Source of the DNA: an uncultured virus (IMG/VR IMGVR_UViG_3300017963_000243)
Taxonomy: Duplodnaviria; Heunggongvirae; Uroviricota; Caudoviricetes
DNA: 20,000 bases
Strand: one strand, 5' to 3'
Virus record (IMG/VR): IMGVR_UViG_3300017963_000243
Coordinates: 58,571-78,570 of that record
The position numbers were made by a program, and so were the translations under genes. Positions 3,386 through 17,718 of this stretch are shown here, one piece after another (position 1 is the first letter of the stretch; the number at the start of each line of letters is the position of its first letter). Under the pieces are notes generated by a model, which did no database searches, was not told where the DNA came from, and worked only from the letters and a program-made list of their open reading frames with translations.

Positions 3386-4462
3386 ATGACCGAAAAACAA
3401 GAGAACAAAGACACCCCGGTGTCTGCCGACACCCAAGAGTCAAAAAACCAGAAGGAGAAAAACGTGACTGACGCCAAGGCACCAGAGAAGACTGAGCGTA
3501 AAGCTCCGAAGAAGAAAGCCCCTGTCAAGAAGGAAGAGCCGGTAGCGGAGAACAACTTCGTTGTGAAGCTCACTGACATCGAGCTCCCGGACAAGTGGAA
3601 CCGGGACAAGCCCGGTAACCTCGGGTCATTGACCACGTCGCTCAAGACCATCGGGCAAATCGTCGCCATGGTCGTGCAGCCTCACCCCACCAAGAAGGGG
3701 AAATATGTCCTCGTGGATGGGCGGCGGCGTTACATGGCGCTCCAAGACGCGAAAATCAAAAATGCGTTCGTTACGTTCACCGCGGGCGATGAGACCGAAG
3801 CCTACACCAAGTCCCTGGTGGCAAACATCAACCGGGAAGGTCACAACCCTATGGAGATCGCCAACGCGTTCTCTGAGTTGATCGAAGGAGGTATGAATAA
3901 CCGCAAGATCGCCCGGGCAGGTGGCGTCTCCGAGGGGTTCGTTTCGCAACACTTGTCGCTCCTCGACCTCGACAGTGCGGTACAGAAAGCTATCGCGAAG
4001 GACGTCATCTCGATGTCCCAGGCGCGCATCCTCTGCCGCGTCAATGTGGAAGAACATTCCACTTTCTTCTTCCGCCTGTTCGAACAGATGGTAACCAAGG
4101 GTCTCAGCGCCCCCGAAGCGGACGAGAAGACGAAAGCGTATCTCGACCGTTACAAGCAGCGCCAAAAGGAGAAGGAAGAGGCGCAGAAGGCCAAGGACAA
4201 AGCCGCTGGGAAGGACACTTCCAGCAAGAAGGGCGCAGGGAAGAAGCCGGAAGAGCCCAAGAAGGGCCCCGGACGTCCAGAAGCCGAGGTTCCGACCTAT
4301 GATGACCGTAAGGCTGACATCCGCCCCTCGAACAAGACGGAGCTCCTTGCCTACCTCAACGGTCACTCCGAGCGCATGGCGCGCGCCACGTCAGAGAAGA
4401 CCAAGCAGTTCTTGAAGGGTGTGCTCCACGGTCTGGAGCTGGCTTCCGGTCTGAAGGAATAG
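3386..4462 (+). CDS. parB: ParB/Spo0J-family protein (ParB N-terminal CTPase-like domain plus HTH)
   Basis: YVLVDGRRRYMAL (GxRR arginine patch), ANINREGHNPMEIA, HTH NRKIARAGGVSEGFVSQHLSLL; Lys-rich low-complexity N-terminal and late segments; SD GGAG at 3373-3376. Confidence 0.88.
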   Translation: MTEKQENKDTPVSADTQESKNQKEKNVTDAKAPEKTERKAPKKKAPVKKEEPVAENNFVVKLTDIELPDKWNRDKPGNLGSLTTSLKTIGQIVAMVVQPHPTKKGKYVLVDGRRRYMALQDAKIKNAFVTFTAGDETEAYTKSLVANINREGHNPMEIANAFSELIEGGMNNRKIARAGGVSEGFVSQHLSLLDLDSAVQKAIAKDVISMSQARILCRVNVEEHSTFFFRLFEQMVTKGLSAPEADEKTKAYLDRYKQRQKEKEEAQKAKDKAAGKDTSSKKGAGKKPEEPKKGPGRPEAEVPTYDDRKADIRPSNKTELLAYLNGHSERMARATSEKTKQFLKGVLHGLELASGLKE

Positions 4463-4464
4463 CG

Positions 4465-5517
4465 TTATTCCGCGCAGAGATCGCTCAAATCATTCACTGA
4501 CAATCTTCGGAACTCTAACTTCACCTCTTGCAGTAGTCGCTGCTTGATCTGCCGGACACGTTCCGGAGTCAGGTCGGCGAGTACTGCAAGTTGGTGAAGA
4601 CTCTTCGAAGAAGTTCGGCGCGTTTTTTCAGGGATGTTGTAGTACTGGAGTAAGATAAACTTGTCACGCGCACGCATTGGGATCTTGGAAAGCACGTCGC
4701 GAATCATCTTTGCGACAGTAGCGTCAATGACTTCTTCCTCCATATCGGAGTCACTCGTAAGAGGTATCGGACGACCCTGGGCGTTCTCGAGAGGGACCAT
4801 GATGTTGAGAGCTTCCTGGTCAACCACTGGCAGGAAGTCGTGAGCCTCACCTGAAGGGCATGGCGGTAGGCTTCTAGGGGTAATATCGCCATCTACTCGA
4901 TAGTCGCAATGGCGGCACATAAACGACGTGGTACGTTGCGCTCTGCGGTGCGACTTATGTTTGTGGGAGGGGACGTGCACAATACTGCTACTTTGGATCT
5001 CATCAAACATCTCTTTTCGGATCCAATGTGCAGCGTAGGTCAAGAAGCGCGTCCCCTGAGTGATATCGAACTTGTCGATTGCAATGAGCAGCCCGACGTT
5101 TCCCGCTGACGTGAGTTGTTGTATTCGGTACGGGTCTTTAGTAATGGACTTCGCCATGCGTACAACGAATCGCAAATTACCGTTTACAATACGTTCACGA
5201 GCATCGAGATCTCGCCCTCTACCGCACCTCAAGCAATAAGGTGGAGCATAGTAAGTTTCAAATTTGTCCCCGCACGCGGTACAAAGAGTTAAGTAGTATT
5301 CCGTGGCGTTTTCGTCACCCTCTACGGGAGCGTTGGCGCCACACTCAGTGCAGTAAGGTCTGCGAACTTTGTGAGGGATTAGCTCGTCGCAATGAGGGCA
5401 CGTGTTGTAACGCTTAAGAAGCGCGCGCTCTTCTTTGGGACGCAATAACGGGTGCTTTCCCAAGTCTTCATAGTACGCTTTAAATGTCCTATCGTTAAAC
5501 GCGCTTGCCGATTCCAT
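4465..5517 (-). CDS. Sigma-70 family RNA polymerase sigma factor with Cys-rich zinc-ribbon insertions
   Basis: Region 1.2 YYEDLGKHPLL..EE; region 2 ARERIVNGNLRFVV..AK and GNVGLLIAIDKFD...GTRFLTYAAHWIR; region 4 SLHQLA...LTPERVRQI. Confidence 0.9.
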   Translation of the reverse strand: MESASAFNDRTFKAYYEDLGKHPLLRPKEERALLKRYNTCPHCDELIPHKVRRPYCTECGANAPVEGDENATEYYLTLCTACGDKFETYYAPPYCLRCGRGRDLDARERIVNGNLRFVVRMAKSITKDPYRIQQLTSAGNVGLLIAIDKFDITQGTRFLTYAAHWIRKEMFDEIQSSSIVHVPSHKHKSHRRAQRTTSFMCRHCDYRVDGDITPRSLPPCPSGEAHDFLPVVDQEALNIMVPLENAQGRPIPLTSDSDMEEEVIDATVAKMIRDVLSKIPMRARDKFILLQYYNIPEKTRRTSSKSLHQLAVLADLTPERVRQIKQRLLQEVKLEFRRLSVNDLSDLCAE

Positions 5518-5622: not shown

Positions 5623-6645
5623 ATGAGTAAAGCCAAGAAAAAAGAAGAACCCAAACAGGAGAAAGAAGAGATGAGCGACAAGCAAGAGCCGACTGACATC
5701 GTCAAAGCAGACAGCGCAGAGCTGGAGAAGACGATCCAATCCCCCGTCCTTTTGGATCTCGTACAGCAAGTCAAGAACCCGAGGTTCTATGACAAGTTCC
5801 GTACTCAGCTCGAACGCGTTCGCCGCCCCACTCTCAACGAGTTGGTGAGCATAATCAACACGATTCCCGAAGAGTATCAGGACGCTATCACCACCTTGAT
5901 GAAGAAGATGGATCCGAACCGTCCCGGACTTTACCTCGCGGATTCGCGACCCCAACTCACAGAGCTCCGGCTCTACCAAGGGTCCGGTAACGACCCTAAC
6001 CGTCCCGACAATTGCCGCGTAGGGCACTTCTACTTGACCACCAAACAGAATGTCGGAGCGAAATTCGAGGGTGCAGTTCTCGCACTGTGGCAGGGACGCA
6101 CCATGTGGGCAGGTCCCGAAGATCCTCGCAGCGGTCCCGTCTGTACGTCGATGGACCGGGAAGTGGGTTCCAAGTACGGAACTTGCGAAACCTGTCCTGA
6201 GCGCCCATGGCGTGATGGTGAGAAGACAAACTGTAACGACGACGTTGTCGCGTTCATGCTGCCTAAGGCTATGGACGATATCATCATCGTCCGGTTTTCG
6301 CGTACGTCGGAGGCTTCCGGACGGCAACTCTCTAAGTTCGCCGCTAAGAACCTCGTGCCGTGGCAGCGCTTCTACGAGATCACCGCGAGTGAGCGGCAGG
6401 GCAAGGGCGGCGCTTCGATCAAGTGGCACGTCATGAAAGTAGAGCCTTCCGAGGATTCGATGCCTACCGAGTTGATGGAGTTCTGTGCTGCGCTGTGTGC
6501 AATGGCGGAACACGACTTTATCCTCCCGGGTCTGGGACGCATCTATAACGACGCCGCGGCCCTCAGCGGAGACGCCGCAACTTCGCAGAGTGGCGATGCC
6601 GTCAAGGATGCTAGCGAATACGACGACTTCGAAGACAACGTCTAA
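5623..6645 (+). CDS. Putative single-stranded DNA-binding/annealing protein with a Zn-binding insertion
   Basis: Strong SD; first gene of the replication operon; C-x-S-x-D...CETC...W...C motif; acidic tail EYDDFEDNV typical of phage SSBs; followed by a terminator, consistent with high expression. Function is inferred. Confidence 0.55.
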   Translation: MSKAKKKEEPKQEKEEMSDKQEPTDIVKADSAELEKTIQSPVLLDLVQQVKNPRFYDKFRTQLERVRRPTLNELVSIINTIPEEYQDAITTLMKKMDPNRPGLYLADSRPQLTELRLYQGSGNDPNRPDNCRVGHFYLTTKQNVGAKFEGAVLALWQGRTMWAGPEDPRSGPVCTSMDREVGSKYGTCETCPERPWRDGEKTNCNDDVVAFMLPKAMDDIIIVRFSRTSEASGRQLSKFAAKNLVPWQRFYEITASERQGKGGASIKWHVMKVEPSEDSMPTELMEFCAALCAMAEHDFILPGLGRIYNDAAALSGDAATSQSGDAVKDASEYDDFEDNV

Positions 6646-6657
6646 CCTAGGGGGAGG

Positions 6658-6690
6658 AGTGAGGGGGTGCAACGCCCCCTCACTTTTTTT
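6658..6690 (+). terminator. Rho-independent terminator
   Basis: AGTGAGGGGG / CCCCCTCACT 10-bp stem followed by a T-run (6684-6690), 12 nt after the SSB-like stop. Confidence 0.8.
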
Positions 6691-6694
6691 AGTC

Positions 6695-7516
6695 ATGACA
6701 ATCGAGCCGTCGCAATTTGTATTGGATCACGGTCCCTGGTCATACTCCAAAGCGGAGTCAGCGTCGCAATGTCCGCTACGTTTCTACTACACCTATATAG
6801 AAAAGCGTGCGAAGGGGCGTCCGAACGCCGACGCATTGGTCGGACAAGCGGTACATAAAATTCTGGAGTTCATGATCAGCGGTAGGGAGTGGAACCTGGC
6901 TAGGGATGCTGCGTTAGAGTCCTACGACCTAACGACCAACGAGCTCGACCGCGTTGCAGACATGCGATTCTCCGCTGAGAATTTCATCCAGAAACTGACC
7001 CGGTACCAAGAACGCCACAACATCCAAGACACTTGGATTGAGCGGAAGATGGGCATCACCTTGGAAGGTAAGCCTACCAAGTTCTTCGCCTCAGACGTCT
7101 TCTTCCGAGGAGTTGTGGACTTGGCACTTTTCCCCAAAGATAAAGGACACGTAATCGTCCTCGATCACAAAACGGGGAAACGGCGGAATCTGAAGTACTA
7201 CGAGCGACAGTTCGATTGTTACCTCTTACTCGTGAAGGCTACCCTGGGACGCATCAACCAAGGACGCGTCGGAATCCATTGGGCGAAGGAAGACCTGATC
7301 GAGCTTTCGAAGCAACCCAGAAACCTGACGGAGATTCAGCCATATCAGGAGCAACTGATTGAGTGGTTGAACGCTTCCGTACAGGCCGCATCCGAAAACC
7401 TCGAAACTGCCAAACCAGGACCCCTGTGCCCGTGGTGTGAGCACCAGTCCACATGTCCTGAGTTCGGCCAAGGGAGCGACGCCGACAATGCCTGCGGAAA
7501 GGAAAGCGAAGGGTAA
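6695..7516 (+). CDS. Second PD-(D/E)XK nuclease (Cas4/RecB-like exonuclease), 273 aa
   Basis: WSYSK...QCPLRF, GQAVHKILE, RGVVDL, VLDHKTG, QFDCY, CPWCEHQSTC (1+3 Cys Fe-S clamp). Start moved to ATG 6695; the track's 6485 start runs through the previous gene and the terminator. Confidence 0.88.
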   Translation: MTIEPSQFVLDHGPWSYSKAESASQCPLRFYYTYIEKRAKGRPNADALVGQAVHKILEFMISGREWNLARDAALESYDLTTNELDRVADMRFSAENFIQKLTRYQERHNIQDTWIERKMGITLEGKPTKFFASDVFFRGVVDLALFPKDKGHVIVLDHKTGKRRNLKYYERQFDCYLLLVKATLGRINQGRVGIHWAKEDLIELSKQPRNLTEIQPYQEQLIEWLNASVQAASENLETAKPGPLCPWCEHQSTCPEFGQGSDADNACGKESEG

Positions 7517-10500
7517 GAAACGGGGCATTACCCGCAAACAGATCTGGAAGATCTGGGAAACGGTGTCGCCTCGGGACTGGTACGAGTTCTTTAACCACTT
7601 CAAGCGCGGGTCCAACGTAGAGTTTGCGGGGGACACGACGCTGAAGGCCCTGTGCCCCCACCCTAAGCATCCGGACACTTCGCCGTCGTTCTTCGTCTTC
7701 ACGGCCAAGGGCTACGCTAAGTGTTTTGGTTGCGACTTCTACACCTCCAACCCGATAGAGCTCATCGCGATGTTGATGGGCGGCACAGATGCCGACGCCG
7801 TCCAGTTCTTGAATGAGCGCTTCAACCTGAACTTTTTACCTCGTAAAGCCATTGAAGAGCTGCGAGCACAAAAGACCAACCAGAACACCAAGCAAGCGAT
7901 CATGCACGTATGTAATCAAGTGCTGATTGACGCGCTAGCTGACACCTCTGGAAAAACGCACAAGTTCGCACAACCGGCTCTCGACTGGCTCATCAACACT
8001 AGAAAAGTTCCTGCGGATATGCTGCATGCTCTTCCAGTGGGGATCATGCCACCCTTGATAGAGCTCGGTAATTTGGTGGAGGACTACTGCAAGAAACTCA
8101 AAACCGCGTGGGACAACGATCCTAAGAGGGGACCTACGCCTCCTGAAGATGTCACTGACAACTCCATCAATTACATGTCCGAATCCTTCAGCGTTCCTTT
8201 TACCGTAGGCGGGGTCGTGTGGCCCCTCCACGCAACCCCTACGGAAATTGCACGCCTCAAGATACGCGGACCAAACAACAACACTCCTAAAGACATCACG
8301 ATGCCGATGGATGAGTACGAAGATCTCCTCGGCATGTTCGGACTTGGGTGGGGGCCTTACCAGGCACTCCTTGACCCCAAGACGATGAGTGACTGGGCGT
8401 ATCTCACAGAAGGTGAGATGGACGTCATGTCGTACATGGCCCAAGCTTTGAAGACCGGAAACATCAACTTTCCGCTCTTCTCGATTGGCGGGAAGGGCGG
8501 GTCCGCTCACATCGAACCCATCTTCAAAGCAGCGGGATTCTCCGGCGCTTACATGATCGGAGACTCGCCGAACAAAGGTTCGTCGGGGGGTGATGTCGTT
8601 GTCTACCACTGGATGTCCCACATCAGGGATACACGTGTCAAAGTCTTCACCGGTTGGGACGAACTCATTCCCTGTGGGGACCTCGACGAAGCTGTACTGA
8701 CGCATGGCCTCAAGAAAGTTGAGGACACGCTTTGGAAAGACCCGAGCAAATTCTTTGTTCCTGCGTGGCAATGGTGCGCAGAGAGCGCTATGAGCGCCAT
8801 CGACAACTTGAGCGATAAAGACTACCGCGTGATGGTGGAAATTGCTTCCCAGATTGGGAGCTGTCTTCGAAACCGTCACGACATTGAGCAGTACGCTAAC
8901 GAGATCTCTTCCGCGTATGACGAGATCACGGTTCCCATCCTGAAACGTGAAATAGCCTCCAGCGAGGACACAGAAACGGGGTTCATCCTACGGTGCACTG
9001 ACGCTTTGAAAGACCACTTCGCCACCCTCGCCACCAAGTTGGAGAGCGGTAATCGGTGGTTGTTACTCTACGCTAAACGAGCACGTGAATACCGAAAAAT
9101 CAAACTGGACAGTGAACAGTCTATCGCTCAGGAACTCGCACCGACAACGGGTAATCTCCTCCAGTTTATACGCAACGAAGTAGGCTTTCCGGCTTTCATG
9201 GACGACCCCGAAGAGCTTGACGGTCAAGGACGTAAACGAGCTGATCAGAATGTCCGCTACTACCTGAAAGAAGCGTGTTTGGACATGGCACAAGGCGTAC
9301 CCGATCTCACCGCGACGAAAACATTGCGTCAAGGATACCACACTGTCAAGGGCTCCGACGGTACGCGTGAGTTCATTGTCTGCGGCAAAGACGTTCTACA
9401 TATCGAGAGATCCTCCAACGGAGCACCTATCTACAAGCATCTCGACGGACCAGCACACGAGGGTATCCTATTCGACCTGGGCCTCATCAACCCTCAAGAG
9501 GACACGGAACCCTGGTACCCCGGAGGGCTTACTACAAAGGTCCTCGAGGATGCCCAGAACATCAACGTAGATGCCCTATTCAAGGAGCTACAACACTTCT
9601 TCGATATCGGATTCCAGTTCGCAACTCACGACATCATGAAAACACTCTTGGCAGCGCAGACACTGATCTTCCCTGTCATGAACGCTTTCGACCGCCAGAT
9701 GCTCATGTTCATCACTGGGGAGACGCACTCCGGTAAGTCTACACTCCTCTCAACCTTCGGGGGACCTTTCGTACCCAACTTGAAGCTCGTGCTGTGCTCT
9801 CAAGGCATGGACAACTATACTGCCGCAGGCGTCATGGCAGCCACCAACTGCGACTCCCGGCTCATGTGTCTCGACGAGTTCGAGTTCGAAGGTGCAAAGG
9901 CAGAAGCGTCCCGGGTTATCATGGAAATGCTCCGCGGTCTGGTAACTGACCAAGCCAAACGCGTCACCGGCGTAAAAGACGGAAAGGGTTACAAGGTTAC
10001 GTATCACCGTCTGCCAATGATCTTGAGCGGCATTACTGGCGCTGAACTGCCCCAGGACCTGAACCGCCTTCTGATCGTTGAAATGAAGAAGATTCGTTCT
10101 CGCAACAGTCCAGAAAATATCCTCCTTAAAGAATTCGGACAGGAACGGATCCACGAGATGGCTCGCCAAATTGCTGTAGCGCTCTACCCGCGCGTTCCTG
10201 AAATCCTGACACACTACCAGGAAATCAAGTCCCAGTTTGTTGAGCTCAACGCCCTGCTTCCTTTCCCTGTAGAGTGGCGTTACGCGTCCGCGCTCTTCGG
10301 AACGCTGTCTCTTTTGAAATACTTGGGGCACGACTGGCAGTCGTTCTTTCGTGAGTTCGTCTCTCAGAATGCTACTACGATTCAGCGTGCGTCAACCATC
10401 AACGAGTCTACCAACCTCCTTAACACCATGTTTCGCTATGGTGCGCTTTACAACTACGAGACGAAGCGCAACACTTCCGTCAATACACTTTTGGGGCAGA

Positions 10501-10889
10501 GCATTACACGTAACGAGATCAACTCTTACGCCTGTGGCGTTTACTACGACGAAGCCACTAAGAACATCATGCTCCTCCTCAGCCAAGCGATGCCTGTTCT
10601 CATCCCTCCACAGAATCCCATGCGAAACGCTAGCGAAGTTCGAATTCGAGACACTCTCGAACGTCATCCGCTGGCCCTCTCACCTGCAGAGATAAAGAAA
10701 TCAGGCATGATCCAACGTTCCGCCCCCTTCTTGGGTGTCAATATCGCAGTGGAAGACGTCGTCGCCTTCCGCGCACAACCCTGGTTGAACGAGCCCGGTA
10801 TAGCGGACGATTCAGCACCGAAACCACCGAAGAAAGACGACGATACGCTAGAAAATCCGCAACTGGAAGAGTATGACGACTGGGGGTAA
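7488..10889 (+). CDS. DNA primase-helicase fusion: CHC2 zinc finger, TOPRIM, C-terminal P-loop (SF3/AAA+-like) NTPase
   Basis: CPHPKHPDTSPSF...CFGC (CHC2); YLTEGEMD (TOPRIM); GDLDE; Walker A GETHSGKST; Walker B LMCLDEFE; DLNR arginine-finger-like; acidic tail EEYDDWG. Start ATG 7488 follows AGGGAG 7471-7476. Confidence 0.85.
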   Translation: MPAERKAKGKKRGITRKQIWKIWETVSPRDWYEFFNHFKRGSNVEFAGDTTLKALCPHPKHPDTSPSFFVFTAKGYAKCFGCDFYTSNPIELIAMLMGGTDADAVQFLNERFNLNFLPRKAIEELRAQKTNQNTKQAIMHVCNQVLIDALADTSGKTHKFAQPALDWLINTRKVPADMLHALPVGIMPPLIELGNLVEDYCKKLKTAWDNDPKRGPTPPEDVTDNSINYMSESFSVPFTVGGVVWPLHATPTEIARLKIRGPNNNTPKDITMPMDEYEDLLGMFGLGWGPYQALLDPKTMSDWAYLTEGEMDVMSYMAQALKTGNINFPLFSIGGKGGSAHIEPIFKAAGFSGAYMIGDSPNKGSSGGDVVVYHWMSHIRDTRVKVFTGWDELIPCGDLDEAVLTHGLKKVEDTLWKDPSKFFVPAWQWCAESAMSAIDNLSDKDYRVMVEIASQIGSCLRNRHDIEQYANEISSAYDEITVPILKREIASSEDTETGFILRCTDALKDHFATLATKLESGNRWLLLYAKRAREYRKIKLDSEQSIAQELAPTTGNLLQFIRNEVGFPAFMDDPEELDGQGRKRADQNVRYYLKEACLDMAQGVPDLTATKTLRQGYHTVKGSDGTREFIVCGKDVLHIERSSNGAPIYKHLDGPAHEGILFDLGLINPQEDTEPWYPGGLTTKVLEDAQNINVDALFKELQHFFDIGFQFATHDIMKTLLAAQTLIFPVMNAFDRQMLMFITGETHSGKSTLLSTFGGPFVPNLKLVLCSQGMDNYTAAGVMAATNCDSRLMCLDEFEFEGAKAEASRVIMEMLRGLVTDQAKRVTGVKDGKGYKVTYHRLPMILSGITGAELPQDLNRLLIVEMKKIRSRNSPENILLKEFGQERIHEMARQIAVALYPRVPEILTHYQEIKSQFVELNALLPFPVEWRYASALFGTLSLLKYLGHDWQSFFREFVSQNATTIQRASTINESTNLLNTMFRYGALYNYETKRNTSVNTLLGQSITRNEINSYACGVYYDEATKNIMLLLSQAMPVLIPPQNPMRNASEVRIRDTLERHPLALSPAEIKKSGMIQRSAPFLGVNIAVEDVVAFRAQPWLNEPGIADDSAPKPPKKDDDTLENPQLEEYDDWG

Positions 10890-10892
10890 CCC

Positions 10893-13859
10893 ATGCTCGA
10901 TTGTAATCTCTGCGGACAGACCGCTTGGAAAGGCGAATCCTGTCCCGACTGTCCGATTTACCAACAAGAACACTACATGGAAGGAGTCGGCACACAACAA
11001 AATGTCGACTTCTTCTGTGTAGCCGAGTCTCCTCACGTACCCGGCGTATCGAGTTCCCTCACAAAACACACTCCTTGGGGATTCGACGTAGAAGCTATCG
11101 TGAAACGGTCTGTTACAGACACGGTAGCCACTAAGAATCGTTACCGGCAATTGCGAGGACGCTTTTCGTACGCTGTCCGCTGCGCTGTCGACAAGCCTAA
11201 CAAGAAGATACGAGAAGCCTGCTCGAAACTTTTCAAACCTGAGTTGTTAAAAGCTGCGAATCCTAAACGCCCCATCATGATCTTTGCGCTAGGACCCGCG
11301 GTCCTCCAGTCCCTAGGGATTAAGGTCTCGGGGTACAAAAAACTCCAGGGCAGGCTCGTCGAAGCGACGCTCAGTGGACGCCGTGTCATCATCATGCCGT
11401 CATTATCTAAGCGACAACTTGCGGCAAATCCGGAGCACCACGAAATCCTGATGCGCCAACTGTACCAGTTCTTGGATGCAGTACTGGAAGTACGCGCGGG
11501 AAGATCCGTACAGATCATCACCCCTACGGACATGCTCATCCAAGACTACCGCTTCCCCAAATCCGTTCGTGCGGTCCAGAAACTCGTCGAAGAAGTAGTC
11601 GCCTACGCTCCTGAGGGGAGAAACCCCGATACGCACGTCATCTCAGTAGACACAGAAACTAACACCCTGTTTCCGCACCGCGAAAAGCTCAAGATTCTAA
11701 CCTTCGTGTTCTCTTGGGGCCCTGGCTTAGCCGCTTCAATCCCTATCGAACACGACGAGAGTCCTCTGACATTGGCGGAAGTGGCCCCATATATCCAGCA
11801 GCTTCTCACGTGCCCTAAGCCTAAAGTTTTTCACAACGCCAAGTTCGACCTCAAAGTTTTACGACGTAAAGGGTGGGACGTAGAGAAGCTGGCTTGGGAC
11901 ACAATGCTAGCAGAACACCTTCTTGCTGAGGCCAAAAAGGGGTACTACGACCTGAAGTCCTTGACGCAGAGCTTCCTCCCTAAATACGGCGGATACGAAG
12001 ACGAGATGCAAGCAGTTTACCGGAAGAGAGTCCTCGAGTACAAAGCGTCACTCGAACGAGACCCTAACGCCCCAAAATTGAAGGGTGCTGCTAAGAAGCT
12101 CGATGAAGACTACGGGTACGCCTTCGTCCCTCTTAAGAAGTTGAGCGTGTACGGGGCGATTGACGCTGACGTTACTCGGCAACTTGCTCTCGTCCAGCGT
12201 AAGAGGATGCTCGCTGAACAGAAAGACCTGAACGCGCGTCGTCGAAAAATCAGTACGAACACGTACTTTGCAGCGCTAGCAGCTCCTGGCACGCCGGAGA
12301 AAGAGCCTCTCAAAGCGCTCATGTTTCAGCAACTCATCCCTGTCACGCGTACGTTAGCTCGGATGGAAGAGGTCGGGATGCGTGTCGACCGCCCATACGT
12401 CCTGGACCTCGACGAGAAGATGCGTAGGTCGGCACGTAACCTCTACGCAGAGTTGAAACTCATGCTCCCTAACGGAGTAGTCAACGAAGACTTCAACCCT
12501 AAAAGCGTGGCACAGTTACGACGGATCCTCTTCACAGCGGGTTACCTACACCCCAAAACAGGGCGGATGGTATGTCATACCGGAGAAATCCCTGATGAAG
12601 ATATCCCGCGTACAGGCACGGGATTAATCTCTACGAACGCCAAGTTCTTGCGCGTGCTCAAAAACCAGTATGACTGTCAGTTCTCAGACACCCTCTTGAA
12701 GTACCGCGCGATCACCAAAGCCCGAGACACTTTCGTACGTAACATCCTCGTACTGAGTGAAGAAGACGGGAGGATGCACACCACCTTTAACATCCACGGA
12801 ACAGCTACCGGAAGGCTAAGTTCCGTGGATGAGAACATGCAAAACATCCCCAAGAAGATCGGGGACCACAACCTCAAACAGTCGTTCATTCCAACTGACC
12901 CGGATACGCAAGTCATGATGAACGCTGATGCCAAGGCCGCAGAGGTGCGCCTCTACGCCGCATATAGTCGAGATGAAAACCTGATTAGCGCTCTCAACGA
13001 AGGTCTGGACCCTCACAGCTTCTTCTCCTCTAGAGTCCTCAACCCCGCTACGATCCTGGAAGGTGTTCGGGCTTCCGAGAAATCTTCGGTCTTGGCGCTA
13101 GTCGGGATCGACGACGTACACGACTGGAGCTACGAAGATTTCCAAAAGCGTGGATACTATACGGGGACTGAGGAGGACCCAGGCCCTGACGTCGCTTACG
13201 GTCAACAGCTCGGTAAACTCCGGGGAAACATCAAACGGGTGGTCTTCGGCATCCTCTACGGAGCCGCACCTAAAAAGATCGCCAGTATTGTAGGGATCCC
13301 AGAAGCTCAAGCTGCTGCCATCATCGAATCCTTGTTCCGAATGTTCCCTACTATTCCAGAGTACATCTCGAAGACTAAAGAGAAGATCCAGTACCTCGGG
13401 TGCGTAGAGACCTTCTTTGGAAGACGGCGCCGTTTCAACCTGCGCGGTATGACCTTCAAAATGCGCAACAAGGCTGAGCGGCAGGCTGTTAACATGCTGA
13501 TCCAGAGTACGAGCTCAGAGATCATCATGAGGGTAATCACCGCGGTTGACGAACCCATACGTCACGACTTCGGAGGCAACTTGCTCATCACAGTTCACGA
13601 CTCTCTTGTTGCGGAGATTCCCAAAAAGTACGTCCCTCAAATGAAAGACTTCATCACCGAATACGGAGTCAAGCGCGTCCGAGAGCTCTATCCGTGGCTG
13701 CCTGTCCCTTTCCTATGGGACGTGGAAGTAGGTCCCTCTTACGGACAACTTACTGACATAGATAAGTACCTGAAAGGGAACGTCCTCCCTGCTGACATTA
13801 GTGGCGACGATTACCTCGACCACGAAATCAAAAGCGACTTCGAAAACCTCGACTCCTAG
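10893..13859 (+). CDS. polA: Family A DNA polymerase with 3'-5' exonuclease and N-terminal degenerate uracil-DNA-glycosylase-like (family 4) domain
   Basis: Exo I VDTET, Exo II FHNAKFD, Exo III YGAIDAD; TGRLSS/NMQNIP; motif A NADAKAAEVR; motif B RGNIKRVVFGILYG; motif C VHDS; N-terminal CPDC..AESP..YAVRC..EAC..IFALG resembling UDG-4. Confidence 0.93.
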   Translation: MLDCNLCGQTAWKGESCPDCPIYQQEHYMEGVGTQQNVDFFCVAESPHVPGVSSSLTKHTPWGFDVEAIVKRSVTDTVATKNRYRQLRGRFSYAVRCAVDKPNKKIREACSKLFKPELLKAANPKRPIMIFALGPAVLQSLGIKVSGYKKLQGRLVEATLSGRRVIIMPSLSKRQLAANPEHHEILMRQLYQFLDAVLEVRAGRSVQIITPTDMLIQDYRFPKSVRAVQKLVEEVVAYAPEGRNPDTHVISVDTETNTLFPHREKLKILTFVFSWGPGLAASIPIEHDESPLTLAEVAPYIQQLLTCPKPKVFHNAKFDLKVLRRKGWDVEKLAWDTMLAEHLLAEAKKGYYDLKSLTQSFLPKYGGYEDEMQAVYRKRVLEYKASLERDPNAPKLKGAAKKLDEDYGYAFVPLKKLSVYGAIDADVTRQLALVQRKRMLAEQKDLNARRRKISTNTYFAALAAPGTPEKEPLKALMFQQLIPVTRTLARMEEVGMRVDRPYVLDLDEKMRRSARNLYAELKLMLPNGVVNEDFNPKSVAQLRRILFTAGYLHPKTGRMVCHTGEIPDEDIPRTGTGLISTNAKFLRVLKNQYDCQFSDTLLKYRAITKARDTFVRNILVLSEEDGRMHTTFNIHGTATGRLSSVDENMQNIPKKIGDHNLKQSFIPTDPDTQVMMNADAKAAEVRLYAAYSRDENLISALNEGLDPHSFFSSRVLNPATILEGVRASEKSSVLALVGIDDVHDWSYEDFQKRGYYTGTEEDPGPDVAYGQQLGKLRGNIKRVVFGILYGAAPKKIASIVGIPEAQAAAIIESLFRMFPTIPEYISKTKEKIQYLGCVETFFGRRRRFNLRGMTFKMRNKAERQAVNMLIQSTSSEIIMRVITAVDEPIRHDFGGNLLITVHDSLVAEIPKKYVPQMKDFITEYGVKRVRELYPWLPVPFLWDVEVGPSYGQLTDIDKYLKGNVLPADISGDDYLDHEIKSDFENLDS

Positions 13860-13898
13860 AGGTAAAAGAGTTTGGTACTGGCGTTTTTCCATACGCAG

Positions 13899-13922
13899 AA
13901 AAACAGAGGGAGTTACTCCCTC
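13899..13922 (-). terminator. Rho-independent terminator on the minus strand
   Basis: Minus strand reads GAGGGAG-TAA-CTCCCTC followed by TGTTTTT. Confidence 0.6.
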
Positions 13923-13939
13923 GCACGCTGCACGAGCTC

Positions 13940-14469
13940 GCGGTACGACCAGGGGTGTCACCGCCACAGCCCGAGCCGACCCACTGTGTGACCTGCGATC
14001 ACACACGTGGCTCAAGCCGGGCTACGACGTGACTCCCACCTGACAGCAGTACCCCACGTTCGAGTGTCAGATGCCGCGCCAAGATTTCGGGACCGACTGG
14101 ACGAACGACGAAATCTTAGCTGCCCATCTGACACTTTTCTCACTAGGAGGAAAGCAGTACCCCCTGTGAGTTCTTCGGAGATCCGAGGCCCTCTCCGCGG
14201 GAGATCTACGCGATGATCGGACGCTGCGTAGTCTCACCTCTGCGAGGGCCCGGATCTCCGATGAACATCCTAGCAGTACCTGTGTACCTGAGTTGGCCTC
14301 CTCATCCCGCTATCCGCTAAGATGAGGACCCCAACTCAAAGCCTAGCAGTACCATTTTTAGTGCCGGAAAACCGGGTATACCCCAGCCGGTGAGCTACAC
14401 GCCGGACGCCTTCGTGTGTGGAACTGAGTGCTCTCGGTTCTGAGCAAGAACGACAGCATAGCGGCACTA
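13940..14469 (-). ncRNA. Candidate structured ncRNA: five long hairpins separated by a conserved 9-nt linker
   Basis: No credible ORF. Inverted repeats 13957-13973/14018-14033, 14063-14073/14125-14135, 14175-14185/14251-14261, 14289-14296/14331-14338 and 14359-14366/14462-14469. Several plus-strand C.A mismatches become G.U pairs on the minus strand. Strand is tentative. Confidence 0.5.
14045..14353 (+). repeat. Four exact direct repeats AGCAGTACC
   Basis: Copies at 14045-14053, 14153-14161, 14272-14280 and 14345-14353. Degenerate GCGGTACG at 13940-13947; inverted partial copy GGTACTG at 13874-13880. Confidence 0.9.
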
Positions 14470-16065
14470 CTCCTGCCAGAATTTGAAATCCTTGTTGATG
14501 ACCTTCCACGCTAGCCACGCAAAGAGGCCAGCGTGGAGGCAGTCATCAGGCTTCTGGGGAGAATGGCGCCAAACCTTCCGGTCATTCTGCGTGATGTCTT
14601 CGTACTCGTTCAAGATGTCGTTAATCGCGACCCGCATCTCCACCAACGGAGCCCACTCTACTTTCTTTTGCTTCAAGAGCATGAAGTAGTTGTCGATGAG
14701 AGTTGTGCGGTCACCCATGTAGCGGTCAATCTGGTTGAACTTCAAGGCTTTGGCCTGCATACCATACTGTACCTGGATCACTTTGTGGTGTCCGAGGTGT
14801 GTGCGCATGAGGTCATTAGCTAATGCCCCTTCACCTGCATCACCGCAGAACATAGAGACGTGGTACTGCTTGCAAGTGTATGCGATCTCTTCTACGGCGC
14901 TTACAGGGTTAGTTCCCGGGTATACCTTATAAAACAAGCACACGAGCTTCTGATCTCTAGGTCGCCAACCCCAGATCCAAAGAACAGTCCTGGATACCCC
15001 AGAAGTCCCTCCCCCCGACCAATCAGCGCCCGCAACGATTTGTGTGATGTCCTTTAAGTGGTCTCGCGGGGGATACTGCTCCAGCTTTCTACCTGTGCAC
15101 AACGCCTCAAGCTCTTCTTGAGAAAGTAAGCGGCTACCAATCTCGTCCGAAACACCCAAGACCTCATTCCGAAAAGTCGAAAGAGGGGCTTCTTCGTATT
15201 TCTGTAAGATTCGCGACCAGCGCTGCTCCGCAACTTGAATTTCGGATGTGGAACGTCCCGCCATTCTCATTGCATGTGGGTTGTTACGCGGCATCATCGG
15301 CTGACTAATATGAAAACCCTGGAGTGTTTTACTCGGAGCCATATCCACCCATTGGCCATTGAAGGGGTTAAGCAATTTTTTACATTTAGGACAGCCGGGG
15401 CCCTCTTTTTGGAGTATCTTCTCACTGTCAATGTACACGTAGTTATTACAGCCCTCGCACTTCATCACCCACTCAGTCTGGGTGCTGAGCTCCCAGAGGT
15501 ACTGAATGGTATTCTCCATCGTCTTCGGAGTCCCGGCATACGTCTCATACGCGTAGTCAGACTCCGCCATCGTCTCGTTACCGACAGTGATGACAGGGTC
15601 ATACAGAATATCCTGGACCTCGTCATACATGTTCCGGTCAGTGGAAGGCCCACGAAGACGTTCAGCATCATCACATCCGTAGGTGAAGAGCATCTCGCTG
15701 CCATTCGTGAACTGTTTGTGGAAGACGCGGTCTGCCAAGTCCGTTCGCAGAAACTTATCGTTGATAATTGGGGAATAGCGCATCGTTTTACCGATACGCG
15801 TATTGGAAAACCGCGTCGTTTGCTCCTTGGAGGGGCTCACGAACATGGTAGAGAAGTGTGGTATAAGACTGCACTCGATGATGGAGAAATTCGCTAGCGT
15901 AGTAGACTTCGCAACCTGGCGACTAGTCTTAAACAACGTACGCCGATAGCGCCCGTCATAGAACGCACGGTGCATCGGCCAATCCGTCAAACGAAAAGGT
16001 TTCCCGTCGAGCATAATCCATGCTTCGGCGGTAACGGACAGTAGGGCTGAGCGGGAGTTGCTCAT
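14467..16065 (-). CDS. terL: Terminase large subunit, lambda GpA-like
   Basis: Walker A-like FKTSRQVAKSTT; LRG...MYDEVQD Walker B; GTP coupling motif; CEGC...CPKC Zn ribbon typical of GpA; RNase H-like nuclease acidic residues in GADWSGG, CGDAG and PDDCLHA. Confidence 0.9.
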   Translation of the reverse strand: MSNSRSALLSVTAEAWIMLDGKPFRLTDWPMHRAFYDGRYRRTLFKTSRQVAKSTTLANFSIIECSLIPHFSTMFVSPSKEQTTRFSNTRIGKTMRYSPIINDKFLRTDLADRVFHKQFTNGSEMLFTYGCDDAERLRGPSTDRNMYDEVQDILYDPVITVGNETMAESDYAYETYAGTPKTMENTIQYLWELSTQTEWVMKCEGCNNYVYIDSEKILQKEGPGCPKCKKLLNPFNGQWVDMAPSKTLQGFHISQPMMPRNNPHAMRMAGRSTSEIQVAEQRWSRILQKYEEAPLSTFRNEVLGVSDEIGSRLLSQEELEALCTGRKLEQYPPRDHLKDITQIVAGADWSGGGTSGVSRTVLWIWGWRPRDQKLVCLFYKVYPGTNPVSAVEEIAYTCKQYHVSMFCGDAGEGALANDLMRTHLGHHKVIQVQYGMQAKALKFNQIDRYMGDRTTLIDNYFMLLKQKKVEWAPLVEMRVAINDILNEYEDITQNDRKVWRHSPQKPDDCLHAGLFAWLAWKVINKDFKFWQE

Positions 16066-16085
16066 AACAAAGAGAGGTTAACAGC

Positions 16086-17336
16086 ATGGCACGAGGCAGG
16101 CAAGAAGAGAACCCGAACAAGCAGCTGCACTACGCCGAGAAGTACGACATCCCACGAGCTACCATCGCAGAGATCCGGCAGCAGATCCTGCTCACCTGGC
16201 AGACCAAACAGCACCGCGGAGCTATCTGCGTGGTCGGTGAGGCAGGCATCGGCAAGTCCCAGATCGTCGCCCAGATCGCGAGGGATGAAGGCGCGAGCAT
16301 CTACGACATCAGGACCGCCCACTACGGTCTCGTGGGTACCGGCATCCCGAGCACTAAAGACTCCCCCGAGGGGTACTTCGACCTGCTCGTCCCGTCGGTG
16401 TTCCCAAAGAAGGGTGAGAAGTCCATCATGCTGTTCGAGGAGATCAACCAGGGTCTTCAGCACAGCATCGCCATGTTCTTCTCCCTCGTCGAGGACCGGA
16501 GGATGTTCAACTACTTCCTTCCGGATGAGGCCATCGTGGTCGCGCTGATGAACCCCGCAACGGCGCAATACGCCGTCACACAGCTCGAAAACAACGCAGC
16601 TCTCCGTCGGCGCCTGAAGTGGTTCTACGCACTGGAGTCGTTCAAGGACTGGGTCGAACACGCGTCCACCGACAGCTTCCACGAGAGCGACCGTTCCTGC
16701 TTCGACGATCACAAGGGGCGTCCATGCCATCCGGGAGTACTCGACTTCGTGAAGCAGTACCCCAAGAATCTGTACGACAAGAAGGCGCAGGGAGAAGGCA
16801 AGCAGTACATGTGCCCCGCGACGGTCCAGACCGTCTCGCTGGACGCGTACATGCTCGAGAAGATGGACCTCCCCGTCGACAACGAGTTCGCCCTGTGCCG
16901 TTACGCATCCTCCGTGGGCACGCACATGGCGACGCAACTCGTCGAGCACCTCAAGGACAACCGCACCGCGGTTCGCGCCGACGACGTGGTCTCCGACTAC
17001 AAGAAGCTCGCTCGCAAGCCGGTGCGCCTCCTCCTGCAGAAGTCGGAGCAGGAGAAGATCACCGAACTGAACATCAACGTCCTGACGTACATGTTCAGCC
17101 TGCAGCCCGACGCAAAGGTAGCGGCGAAGAACTTCGTCATGTATCTCGAAGATCTGCCCAACGAGATGCGTGTCAGCCTGCTCTCGCAGCTGAAGAAGTT
17201 CGCAGACGAGAACAACGCCAACGACTACCTCTTCTCCCTGATGCGTCACGTCCAAACACACAAAAGCTGGATCAAGATCCACGCTAGCCTGGACGACGCG
17301 CAGACGGAGGTCGAGCGGGCCCTGCGCGGGAGCTGA
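16086..17336 (+). CDS. MoxR/AAA_5-like AAA+ ATPase
   Basis: Walker A GEAGIGKSQ; YDIR; Walker B variant IMLFEEIN; sensor-1 VALMNP; ALRRR arginine finger; SD GAGAGG at 16072-16077. Confidence 0.85.
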   Translation: MARGRQEENPNKQLHYAEKYDIPRATIAEIRQQILLTWQTKQHRGAICVVGEAGIGKSQIVAQIARDEGASIYDIRTAHYGLVGTGIPSTKDSPEGYFDLLVPSVFPKKGEKSIMLFEEINQGLQHSIAMFFSLVEDRRMFNYFLPDEAIVVALMNPATAQYAVTQLENNAALRRRLKWFYALESFKDWVEHASTDSFHESDRSCFDDHKGRPCHPGVLDFVKQYPKNLYDKKAQGEGKQYMCPATVQTVSLDAYMLEKMDLPVDNEFALCRYASSVGTHMATQLVEHLKDNRTAVRADDVVSDYKKLARKPVRLLLQKSEQEKITELNINVLTYMFSLQPDAKVAAKNFVMYLEDLPNEMRVSLLSQLKKFADENNANDYLFSLMRHVQTHKSWIKIHASLDDAQTEVERALRGS

Positions 17337-17340
17337 GGCC

Positions 17341-17718
17341 GTGTCGCCGTATCTGTCCCTGGCGTGTGAGTTGCGCCAATCCAGAACCGAAGAAGAGTGG
17401 CGGAAGGACTCAGAGGAGATCCGGCAGAAGTGTCTCATCGCCGTTAAAGAAGTAATGACGGCACAGCCTGAGCCGGAAGAGATCATCTACGACTTGATCT
17501 GCCTCCTCCTCGTGCTTCCCGTCGCTGACCGCCTCCACATCCAACGCGCCTTCCGGCCTCTTGCTCAGAAGCTGGATTGCGTGGCCTACCTTTCGAACGT
17601 GTCTCGGGCTCTGCAGGAGACCGACGCCTGGGTGGATCTGAACATCCTGTCAGACAAGGGGCGTCGAAGCCTGCCTGACATGGGGCTGGAGATCAACCCG
17701 GAATTCAAACTCCCTTGA
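17341..17718 (+). CDS. Hypothetical protein, 125 aa
   Basis: GTG start 4 nt after the AAA+ stop, with GGGAG upstream; same G/C-ending codon style; overlaps the convergent gene end by 14 nt. Confidence 0.65.
   Translation: MSPYLSLACELRQSRTEEEWRKDSEEIRQKCLIAVKEVMTAQPEPEEIIYDLICLLLVLPVADRLHIQRAFRPLAQKLDCVAYLSNVSRALQETDAWVDLNILSDKGRRSLPDMGLEINPEFKLP

Follow-up and report, generated by a model that had tools for sequence, protein, structure and literature searches.

The stretch of DNA analysed here (the window) is the final 20,000 nt of a 78,570-nt record of an uncultured virus of the Caudoviricetes (IMG/VR IMGVR_UViG_3300017963_000243), which is judged to be 44% complete; contigs that are near-identical or related to this record extend to 170–190 kb. 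Within the window, a gap of 607 nt (13860–14466) is bounded by two convergent genes and carries an array of hairpins punctuated by a short repeated linker, which is the subject of this study. The left flank is polA (10893–13859, + strand), encoding a family A DNA polymerase with a 3'-5' exonuclease (Pfam DNA_pol_A, 2.8e-71, and DNA_pol_A_exo1, 3.1e-13; PHROG 17, 8.9e-114), and the right flank is terL (14467–16065, − strand), encoding a large terminase with a lambda gpA-type ATPase (Pfam GpA_ATPase, 1.2e-13; PHROG 675, 2.5e-46). Fourteen open reading frames (ORFs) of the window were scanned against Pfam and PHROGs, while gene maps outside the window are our own crude ORF calls. Related loci are designated by L numbers and related records by G numbers, G000 being the whole record of the window. 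An earlier note on this DNA, made from the sequence without database searches, had described the gap as free of ORFs. Six mechanically called ORFs of 43–100 aa do overlap it, although none has a Pfam or PHROG match at E ≤ 1. A protein-coding gene in the gap is not supported, given the lack of a family match and an inner 400 nt that cannot be aligned to L013, a locus with 87% TerL identity. ARAGORN detected no tRNA or tmRNA gene in the window or in 10 related loci.

The linker, AGCAGTACC, occurs in four exact copies on the + strand, at 14045–14053, 14153–14161, 14272–14280 and 14345–14353, with spacings of 108, 119 and 73 nt, exactly as the earlier note had claimed. When one mismatch was allowed, 15 matches were found in the window against 3.06 ± 1.81 expected, and none of 200 shuffles reached 15. 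Two further exact copies in the window, at 14862 (−) and 16753 (+), are both within genes; the 78,570-nt record contains eight exact copies and 30 sites with at most one mismatch, among which only the four array copies fall outside the crude ORF map. The intervals are occupied by hairpin D (14063–14135), hairpin C (14170–14266) and hairpin B (14289–14338), formed by the three longest inverted repeats, 14063–14089/14109–14135, 14170–14190/14246–14266 and 14289–14306/14321–14338, respectively. The minimum free energy (MFE) of the hairpin D unit is −41.3 on the − and −36.6 on the + strand (z −3.5 / −3.0), and the hairpin is followed by TTTTCTC on the + strand; the corresponding values are −63.2 / −66.5 (z −5.4 / −7.1) for the unit of hairpin C and −33.2 / −26.6 (z −4.2 / −5.5) for that of hairpin B. 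Linker copy 4 continues into ATTTTT on the + strand, and beyond it the predicted fold gives a branched domain A (14359–14469) that is closed by TAGTGCCG/CGGCACTA and overlaps the terL stop codon. All arm pairs listed in the earlier note are present in the sequence. Folding was far better than in shuffled controls. The whole gap gave z = −6.12 on the + and −8.47 on the − strand (20 shuffles each), and 22 single-hairpin units, drawn from the array of the window and from five relatives, averaged z −4.26 and −4.53 for the two strands (with 50 shuffles each). In a blastn search, each of the five units of the window matched only itself in the 78.6-kb record and the related loci.

What had been overlooked is a single heptamer, GGTACTG (13874–13880, +), which lies beside the polA stop and is complementary to all four linkers. 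In whole-gap folds, one linker pairs with this heptamer to form a helix that we call P1. The linker had been taken as single-stranded; it does lie between hairpins, but it is also one strand of a potential long-range helix. A degenerate fifth copy proposed at 13940 was dropped, as it retains only 6 of 9 bases (13939–13947) and is not conserved in relatives. As predicted from sequence, P1 closes a conserved four-helix core that also includes P2, P3 (a G-UWA-C hairpin) and P4. In the window, P4 is a short hairpin (13883–13904, GTTTTTC/GAAAAAC), identified by sequence and fold, that abuts the heptamer; P3 (13906–13922) has a purine-rich 5' arm and a loop reading G-TTA-C on the + and G-TAA-C on the − strand, and is supported by compensatory changes; P2 (13948–14042) is a long imperfect hairpin containing TGTGTGA/TCACACA and AGCCCG/CGGGCT, which is present in the predicted folds and is not conserved in sequence in relatives. 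Linker copy 1 would close this core domain with the heptamer. Read on the − strand, the heptamer is CAGTACC, preceded by the conserved C of an invariant CCAGT, the fuller − strand reading being CCAGTACC.

Homologous loci were collected through TerL, which yielded 36 viral and 36 metagenome loci, mostly the same contigs; each of these relatives is a metagenome contig. The terL/polA convergence is retained in most of the loci: where the contig extends far enough, polA almost always comes after terL, in the opposite orientation. The length of the gap varies from 6 to about 1160 nt, and in 11 of the 36 viral loci it is ≤44 nt, that is, there is no gap. In L009, L010, L011 and L046 the gap is letter-for-letter that of the window. 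The related phages of ~170–190 kb carry one to nine copies of a lineage-specific linker, with the core ACTGCT on the terL strand, between unrelated hairpins. Written on the terL-sense strand, the linkers are three copies of GGTACTGCT in L013 (TerL 87%); nine in L017 (65%), comprising one GGTACTGCT and eight GGCACTGCT that extend to AGGCACTGCTGTCTTA or a close variant, at spacings of 60–139; three copies of CGTACTGCT in L020 (65%); three linkers in L033 (about 64%); five in L074 (67%); three in L014 and L077 (72% and 66%), two of them TAACTGCT; and, as a different motif, three copies of ATGCCGCTAAGT in L019 (67%). The 21 inner units measure 42–139 nt (median 91), contain a median of 31 base pairs and share no common apical loop. 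Thus, the linker-plus-hairpin layout is kept in related phages and the unit number is variable, a check that the earlier note itself had suggested.

Our analysis revealed that every array-bearing lineage has one linker complement beside the polA stop. When 36 ACTGCT-anchored linkers of 12 lineages were compared, each with the single anti-motif of its own lineage, 227 of 252 cells were Watson–Crick, a count in which only the three outer P1 positions could vary because the copies were found by the anchor ACTGCT. The helix takes the form GGTACTG/CAGTACC in the window type, TGTACTG/CAGTACA in L015, L030, L039 and L050, ATACACTG/CAGTGTAT in L037, where the whole gap is 171 nt and forms a single domain, and CTAACTG/CAGTTAG in a second, internal domain of L014. 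Across 13 aligned domains, three of the seven P1 pairs are changed on both sides and 96.7% of cells are paired. For P1 and P3 together, 92.9% of cells are paired against 76.1 ± 1.9 in shuffled alignments, and the covariation score is 0.485 against 0.175; neither value was reached in any of 500 shuffles, and slid controls gave 34–52% paired. CCAGT is invariant in all 13 domains, as are ACUG/CAGU and the flanking CU and C, so the sequence is constrained as well as the pairing. P3 has six pairs, five of them with compensatory changes, a closing G-C pair in 12 of 12 and no G-U among 72 cells; in the 13-domain alignment, two-sided changes are seen at 6 of 7 pairs. By inspection, the place of P4 is taken in most of the 12 lineages by a 5–7 bp hairpin of differing sequence, which is weak or unclear in L013, L039 and L050.

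The hairpins, in contrast to the linkers, turn over between lineages. The gap of the window lineage (L010) can be aligned to that of L013 in only two places, the terL-proximal first unit and the final ~60 nt; this first unit corresponds to domain A of the window (67% identity over 132 nt), with a compensatory change in the closing stem. The alignment of L017 with L033 is confined to a 63-nt block and the final ~90 nt, and the inner hairpins share nothing. L012 and L013 have flanks that are 99.7% identical and differ by exactly one 129-nt unit, with the indel junction within the 12-nt linker GGTACTGCTGTG, which indicates that units are lost or gained at linkers. Within the window lineage itself, contigs from four sequencing runs bridge the array with no indels, breaks or rearrangements. 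The read data include a strain whose gap differs at three positions, 14146 (linker flank), 14239 (internal mismatch) and 14444 (loop), and by our reading of the predicted folds none of these substitutions appears to break a helix. Capture of the hairpins from other sequences was considered and rejected, since a single 31-nt match of hairpin C at 90% was all that was found, with nothing significant elsewhere in five related records. This match joins 14188–14218 to L013 3774–3804, within an L013 gene that lies upstream of terL (E 1.4e-5, small database). The counterpart of this gene in the window shows no such match, and the similarity is probably due to chance.

The core domain may not be restricted to the polA–terL gap. 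A model of the segment from P3 to the heptamer found, besides the segment itself, a weak second domain in the record of the window at 5906–5967 (E 0.04), and P3-type hairpins are present in the tRNA spacers of G003; based on these two occurrences, the domain looks like a building block that these phages employ more than once. The same model had no match in five related records, three of which are 95–100% complete. The layout around the second domain (G000 5806–5960, +) is TACTAG, a long hairpin, AGGACGTAACGTCCT, a short hairpin and CTAGTA. A third region of the record (8480–8555) contains a P3-type hairpin after GACTGCTAG, where the model match (8515–8535, E 0.38) covers the hairpin only. In G003, two non-coding regions of ~400–470 nt, at 132040–132505 (+) and 22139–22515 (−), are built from the same building blocks, with a closing helix GCACTAG/CTAGTGC and three G-TAA-C hairpins; a canonical terminator closes one of them, and one is located between two tRNA genes. 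Outside the window, the − strand of G000 encodes eight tRNAs and a tmRNA-like RNA at 1.6–15.4 kb, in genes separated by spacers that fold strongly; in the relative G003 there are five tRNAs, again with a tmRNA-like gene. A gap of another type was seen in L038 (5582–6970; also in L070), whose TerL identity is 55%: it is ~1.4 kb long and contains about four units of ~200 nt, which carry a conserved AGCTAGGCT and a GTCTCCACTACGGAGAC hairpin and in which Tandem Repeats Finder reports no repeat.

The search against Rfam, whose families include phage pRNA, GOLLD, ROOL, tRNA-like RNAs and ribozymes, gave no family match: the best hit in 13500–14900 was a miRNA model (E 0.21; 21 bits against a gathering score of 80), and 11 related loci (94,110 nt) had no match at gathering score. 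The collection of isolated phages contained no DNA match, and the nearest isolates have 29% TerL identity and a different gene order. We also scanned for arrays outside the clade, using either two linker copies at set distances or a box-plus-heptamer pattern. Among the matches listed in these non-exhaustive scans, most were chance or in-frame coding repeats, and after filtering only contigs that were already known were left; two further array candidates outside the clade were read as coding sequence. In Rfam, in the literature on tandem hairpins in phages and among the systems familiar to us, a survey that was not exhaustive, we found no described family that appears to have this build. The locus agrees with what the earlier note had proposed: a structured element, non-coding and so far undescribed, in which linkers alternate with hairpins.

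The anatomy of the array, its conservation, its covariation and the turnover of its units are observed. As to what the array is, we tentatively favour, at a probability of about 40%, that the gap is a single structured element, conserved, non-coding and made up of several domains, which functions as one strand, most likely of RNA, with a role in cis. In such a molecule, GGUACUG (13874–13880, +) would pair with the CAGUACC core of one linker to form P1, enclosing P4, P3 with its G-UUA-C loop and P2, and the array would extend toward terL by units that each consist of one independently folding hairpin and one linker. One heptamer would thereby face four equivalent linkers in the window, and one to nine in relatives, and the linkers would compete for it. 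Any free linker might close the molecule on its 5' end; surplus linkers would be left unpaired and might engage further copies of the RNA or a different partner. The hairpin sequences are free to drift, with linker and heptamer held constant and changing together between lineages. The outcome may be a self-closing, nuclease-resistant RNA module acting in cis, bordering the converging replication and packaging gene blocks.

Transcription in the polA sense is suggested by the box GGTAAAAG (13861–13868, +), which faces the array 2 nt past the polA stop, with 5 nt separating it from the heptamer, and whose position would put the heptamer at or near the 5' end of the RNA. In three records in which ORFs of at least 90 aa cover 88–94%, the general form GGTAWAAG is intergenic at 19 of 38 sites, and at several sites it lies 17–70 nt upstream of co-oriented genes; its distance to the heptamer is 5–6 nt in the majority of the 12 aligned lineages, with L014 and L037 as exceptions. 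We regard GGTAWAAG as a candidate −10-like promoter element of the clade, to judge from its placement, perhaps read by the phage sigma-like protein encoded at 4465–5517 of the window. GGTAWAAG sites in G000 are located at 943 (−), 2636 (−) and 15565 (−), and further sites were seen in G003 and G002. A GGTATAAG box at ~15860 (+) lies inside terL on the opposite strand and is conserved in three lineages (also at G003 82063 and G002 51645); it could reflect coding constraint or an internal antisense promoter.

Pairing also bears on the strand. The single-base linker variants GGCACTG, GATACTG, AGTACTG and CGTACTG are all transitions that give G-U on the + and A-C on the − strand, and 17 of the 25 non-Watson–Crick cells of P1 are G-U on the + strand compared with none on the − strand. 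The earlier note had also read the array in + orientation, and we favour this strand at roughly 55–60%, a weak preference on mixed evidence. Several observations weigh against the + strand RNA or against a fixed role for it. The wobble signal really amounts to four or five independent transitions and no transversions, and any transition at these positions yields a wobble on the + strand. With composition controlled, folding favours neither strand: the terL-sense fold has the lower energy in 9 of 22 units (Wilcoxon p = 0.20), and a consensus fold of two sequences is nearly equal on both (−19.85 against −19.55). The L012 linker GGTATTGCT gives a wobble on the − and a mismatch on the + strand, and the P3 loops in the tRNA spacers of G003 read G-UAA-C in the sense of the tRNAs, which is the − orientation here. 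The terminator scan showed no canonical terminator on the + strand of the window ahead of terL. The absence of G-U among the 72 cells of P3 suits a hairpin needed on both strands, or a DNA hairpin, as well as RNA. Since 11 of 36 relatives have no gap, any role would be dispensable or supplied elsewhere, and a function in end protection or insulation is read from position and anatomy. Two other strand calls were discarded: the summed unit energies (−1988 on the − strand against −1836 kcal/mol) and the number of G-U pairs (114 against 77, favouring the − strand) both lost their difference after dinucleotide shuffling. The apparent G-U excess follows from the richness in G that marks the − strand throughout the genome.

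The opposite polarity, in which the array prolongs the late packaging operon as a long 3' untranslated region that terminates and protects the 3' end of the terL mRNA, seems to us rather unlikely. Each GGUACUGCU copy could then serve as the 5' strand of a helix whose one 3' strand, CCAGUACC, runs into a U-rich stretch. The sole terminator-like site in the window's gap is indeed on the − strand (P3 plus TGTTTTTCTG), and this single site compares with a mean of 1.0 in shuffled sequence for the 1.2-kb region scanned. The T run after P3 is an arm of P4 and is not conserved in relatives. The minimal 171-nt gap of L037 has T9 after the 3' strand of P1, and this place is T-rich in several lineages; the G003 hairpins read G-UAA-C in the sense of both the tRNA genes and the canonical terminator, and the wobble of L012 GGTATTGCT points the same way. 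Opposed to this are L039, where a canonical terL-sense terminator already stands 27% into the gap, and L014 and L021, where strong canonical polA-sense terminators are found at the terL end. Across 21 gaps, canonical sites are few and at the ends only, and the long variable hairpins lack U runs. The 1 × 1 mismatches of the hairpins on the − strand (19 G-T, 5 A-C) would favour a terL-sense RNA, but mismatch positions, like the − strand throughout the genome, are rich in G, which accounts for the excess, and it was rejected as a strand call. Furthermore, the intact linker variants would be A-C mismatches on the − strand, and the conserved GGTAWAAG box at its fixed distance would be left unexplained. 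Unlikely as well is the earlier note's suggestion of a transcript cut at the linkers into hairpin RNAs, or of a sponge or decoy acting in trans; one candidate partner would be a sequence-specific host endoribonuclease. A recognised site would account for a linker that is identical in up to nine copies while hairpins drift, and a tracked partner for its lineage specificity (GGTACTGCT, GGCACTGCTGTCTTA, CGTACTGCT, ATGCCGCTAAGT); at most one linker pairs with the single heptamer, leaving the rest free, and the element is accessory, being absent from 11 of 36 relatives. However, the sole complement found lies inside the element and covaries with the linker, which already explains linker conservation and lineage specificity, and a sponge for an outside factor is not supported; likewise, nothing observed points to cutting at the linkers. 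In addition, the 14 ORFs scanned include no gene for a nuclease or RNA-binding protein that is linked to the array, and the motif occurs in no other intergenic region of the 78.6-kb record.

An element acting as DNA is quite improbable; it would comprise single-stranded hairpins with a repeated enzyme site, serving as a priming site or origin, a packaging site or a site-specific recombination array. The hairpins are nearly pure Watson–Crick and equally good on both strands, the array stands between replication and packaging modules beside polA and a gene with a DnaG-type primase motif, units are lost or gained exactly at direct repeats, and the linker contains trinucleotides of known primases (CTG, GCT, GTC). 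Against it, the cumulative GC skew shows no turn at the terL/polA junction and is monotonic over the whole of the 170–179 kb relatives, the region is not AT-rich (GC 0.573 at 14001–14400), and an essential site should not vanish, as the gap does in 11 of 36 relatives with no copy of the core elsewhere in five. Contigs from all four runs pass through the array unbroken, which assembled contigs would also do at a packaging site, and known iterons or terminase sites are not known to covary over 100–200 nt. The skew, the GC content and the missing gaps led us to reject an iteron-bearing replication origin in particular. The skew runs in one direction over nearly all of 78–179 kb whatever the orientation of the genes (G000, G002, G003, G006, G007 and G009), which suggests one-directional replication or another genome-wide strand asymmetry. 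That the array has no dedicated function, with palindromes piling up at a convergent junction as generic two-way stops and the motif as a by-product of slippage, is very unlikely. The convergent position, the widely varying gap length, the symmetry of hairpins between strands and the one-unit, slippage-type indel between 12-nt repeats would all be expected, but recent duplication predicts similar hairpins and old duplication decayed linkers, whereas L017 has eight near-identical linkers beside dissimilar hairpins. Linker–heptamer covariation across lineages and the invariant closing pair and loop of P3 also speak against it, and P3 on the − strand is the one hairpin of the window with a T run that the terminator scan accepted. 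About as doubtful as the DNA element is the most novel view of the array, either a dynamic cassette system in which new palindromic units are gained with duplication of the linker, a kind of inverse CRISPR whose record would be stored in hairpins, or a multivalent RNA. Cassette addition would explain why the eight L017 linkers are near-identical over ~16 nt beside unrelated hairpins; in the multivalent version, one 5' heptamer and n linkers would assemble RNA-only multimers or networks in the infected cell.

The array was compared with known systems. Similar to CRISPR, a constant short element alternates with variable ones, the number of units varies, and gain or loss takes place at the constant element. 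The constant element measures 9 nt here (12–14 in copy pairs, at most 16 in L017), unlike CRISPR repeats, which measure 23–50 nt and are near-identical and often partly palindromic, and the inner units are palindromic hairpins of 42–139 nt, unlike uniform non-palindromic spacers of 30–40 nt, so a CRISPR array was rejected; apart from a weak PD-(D/E)XK label, no cas gene was found in Pfam or PHROGs among the 14 ORFs of the 20-kb window. The earlier note's phrase of inverted CRISPR logic is apt for short constant and long structured variable units, but it misses the core, in which the constant element pairs in cis with the heptamer as a strand of a covarying long-range helix. The sponge RNAs CsrB and RsmZ likewise repeat a short motif many times among hairpins, in a copy number that varies by species. 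Their GGA motif, bound by a known protein, is mostly found in the loops of hairpins; the motif of the array lies between hairpins, has another sequence and a covarying internal partner, and gave no Rfam hit. ToxI and phage pseudo-ToxI are tandem RNA units with a fixed short site per unit, and phages are known to carry ToxI-like arrays as counter-defence. A type III antitoxin array was rejected, as ToxI units are near-identical, ~36 nt long and directly upstream of an endoribonuclease toxin gene, while units here are unrelated and flanked by polA and terL.

The boxA–boxB elements of nut sites and rRNA operons also place a short linear motif beside a hairpin of free stem sequence, and the L017 linker, ending in UGCUGUCUUAAC, resembles the boxA consensus as we know it. 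Nut sites follow promoters, whereas the array lies at operon ends; the window linkers continue with GCUAGG, GCUUUCC and GCUGUCAGG, without the UCUUUA core, and the conserved GGUACUG does not occur in boxA. Measured against the boxA core GCUCUUUA, the − strand of the window linkers reads ...ACUGCUAGG, ...ACUGCUUUCC and ...ACUGCUGUCAGG, only L017 being close, and a nut site was rejected. REP, BIME and ERIC palindromes and the RNase III-site hairpins of T7 are stable intergenic hairpins at gene ends, as here, and are thought to stop exonucleases or to serve as processing sites. A repeated palindrome of the MITE or REP type, which recurs across a genome in many copies of one sequence family, does not fit, because each unit is unique in the record and its relatives and the units are joined by a heptamer-pairing linker. 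The phi29 pRNA is a structured phage RNA linked to packaging, and the earlier note had loosely likened the array to it; the comparison fails on the absence of an Rfam hit at E ≤ 10, the lambda gpA-type terminase and the lack of a gap in 11 of the 36 relatives that share this terL. Several other identities known to us were dropped for poor fit: sigma-54 −24/−12 spacing, the T4 MotA box, Chi sites, primase trinucleotides with G4-type priming hairpins, phage nick-site consensus, single-strand origins of rolling-circle plasmids (CS-6), MqsR/MazF-type cleavage motifs, complementarity to the 530 region of 16S rRNA, and a tRNA-like cloverleaf, considered in topology only. GOLLD and ROOL are similar as highly structured non-coding RNAs of ~600 nt in phage genomes with tRNA genes; they have a fixed architecture, whereas the array is mostly unconserved in sequence and variable in unit number, and no Rfam match was obtained (gap at E ≤ 10; 11 relatives at gathering score). 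GOLLD and ROOL are reported to form RNA-only homo-oligomers (PMC12286853).

Other genes of the window include two PD-(D/E)XK nucleases (616–1473 and 6485–7516), an endolysin with amidase and peptidoglycan-binding assignments (1455–2660), a ParB-like protein (3386–4462), a sigma-70 region-2 protein with a zinc ribbon (4465–5517) and a 1150-aa protein with a DnaG-type zinc finger (7437–10889). Two ORFs of 474 and 416 aa, at 16062–17486 (−) and 16086–17336 (+), overlap almost fully on opposite strands at 60% GC; the scan, which covered the 474-aa ORF, gave no family match.

If this anatomy is right, the gap holds an uncatalogued structured non-coding element in which one heptamer has many interchangeable partners, and whose spacer hairpins are free in sequence and kept in fold, in a clade of large phages that are uncultivated and carry tRNA genes. 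As a testable object, it offers a promoter candidate, a covarying helix, natural variants of one to nine units and a natural deletion of one unit. Should the array be merely an elaborate two-way transcription stop, it would show how such a stop evolves, with flanks and linkers fixed and hairpins replaced. The finding bears on the use of long structured RNAs by phages at the border of replication and packaging, and on RNAs that are built as expandable arrays.

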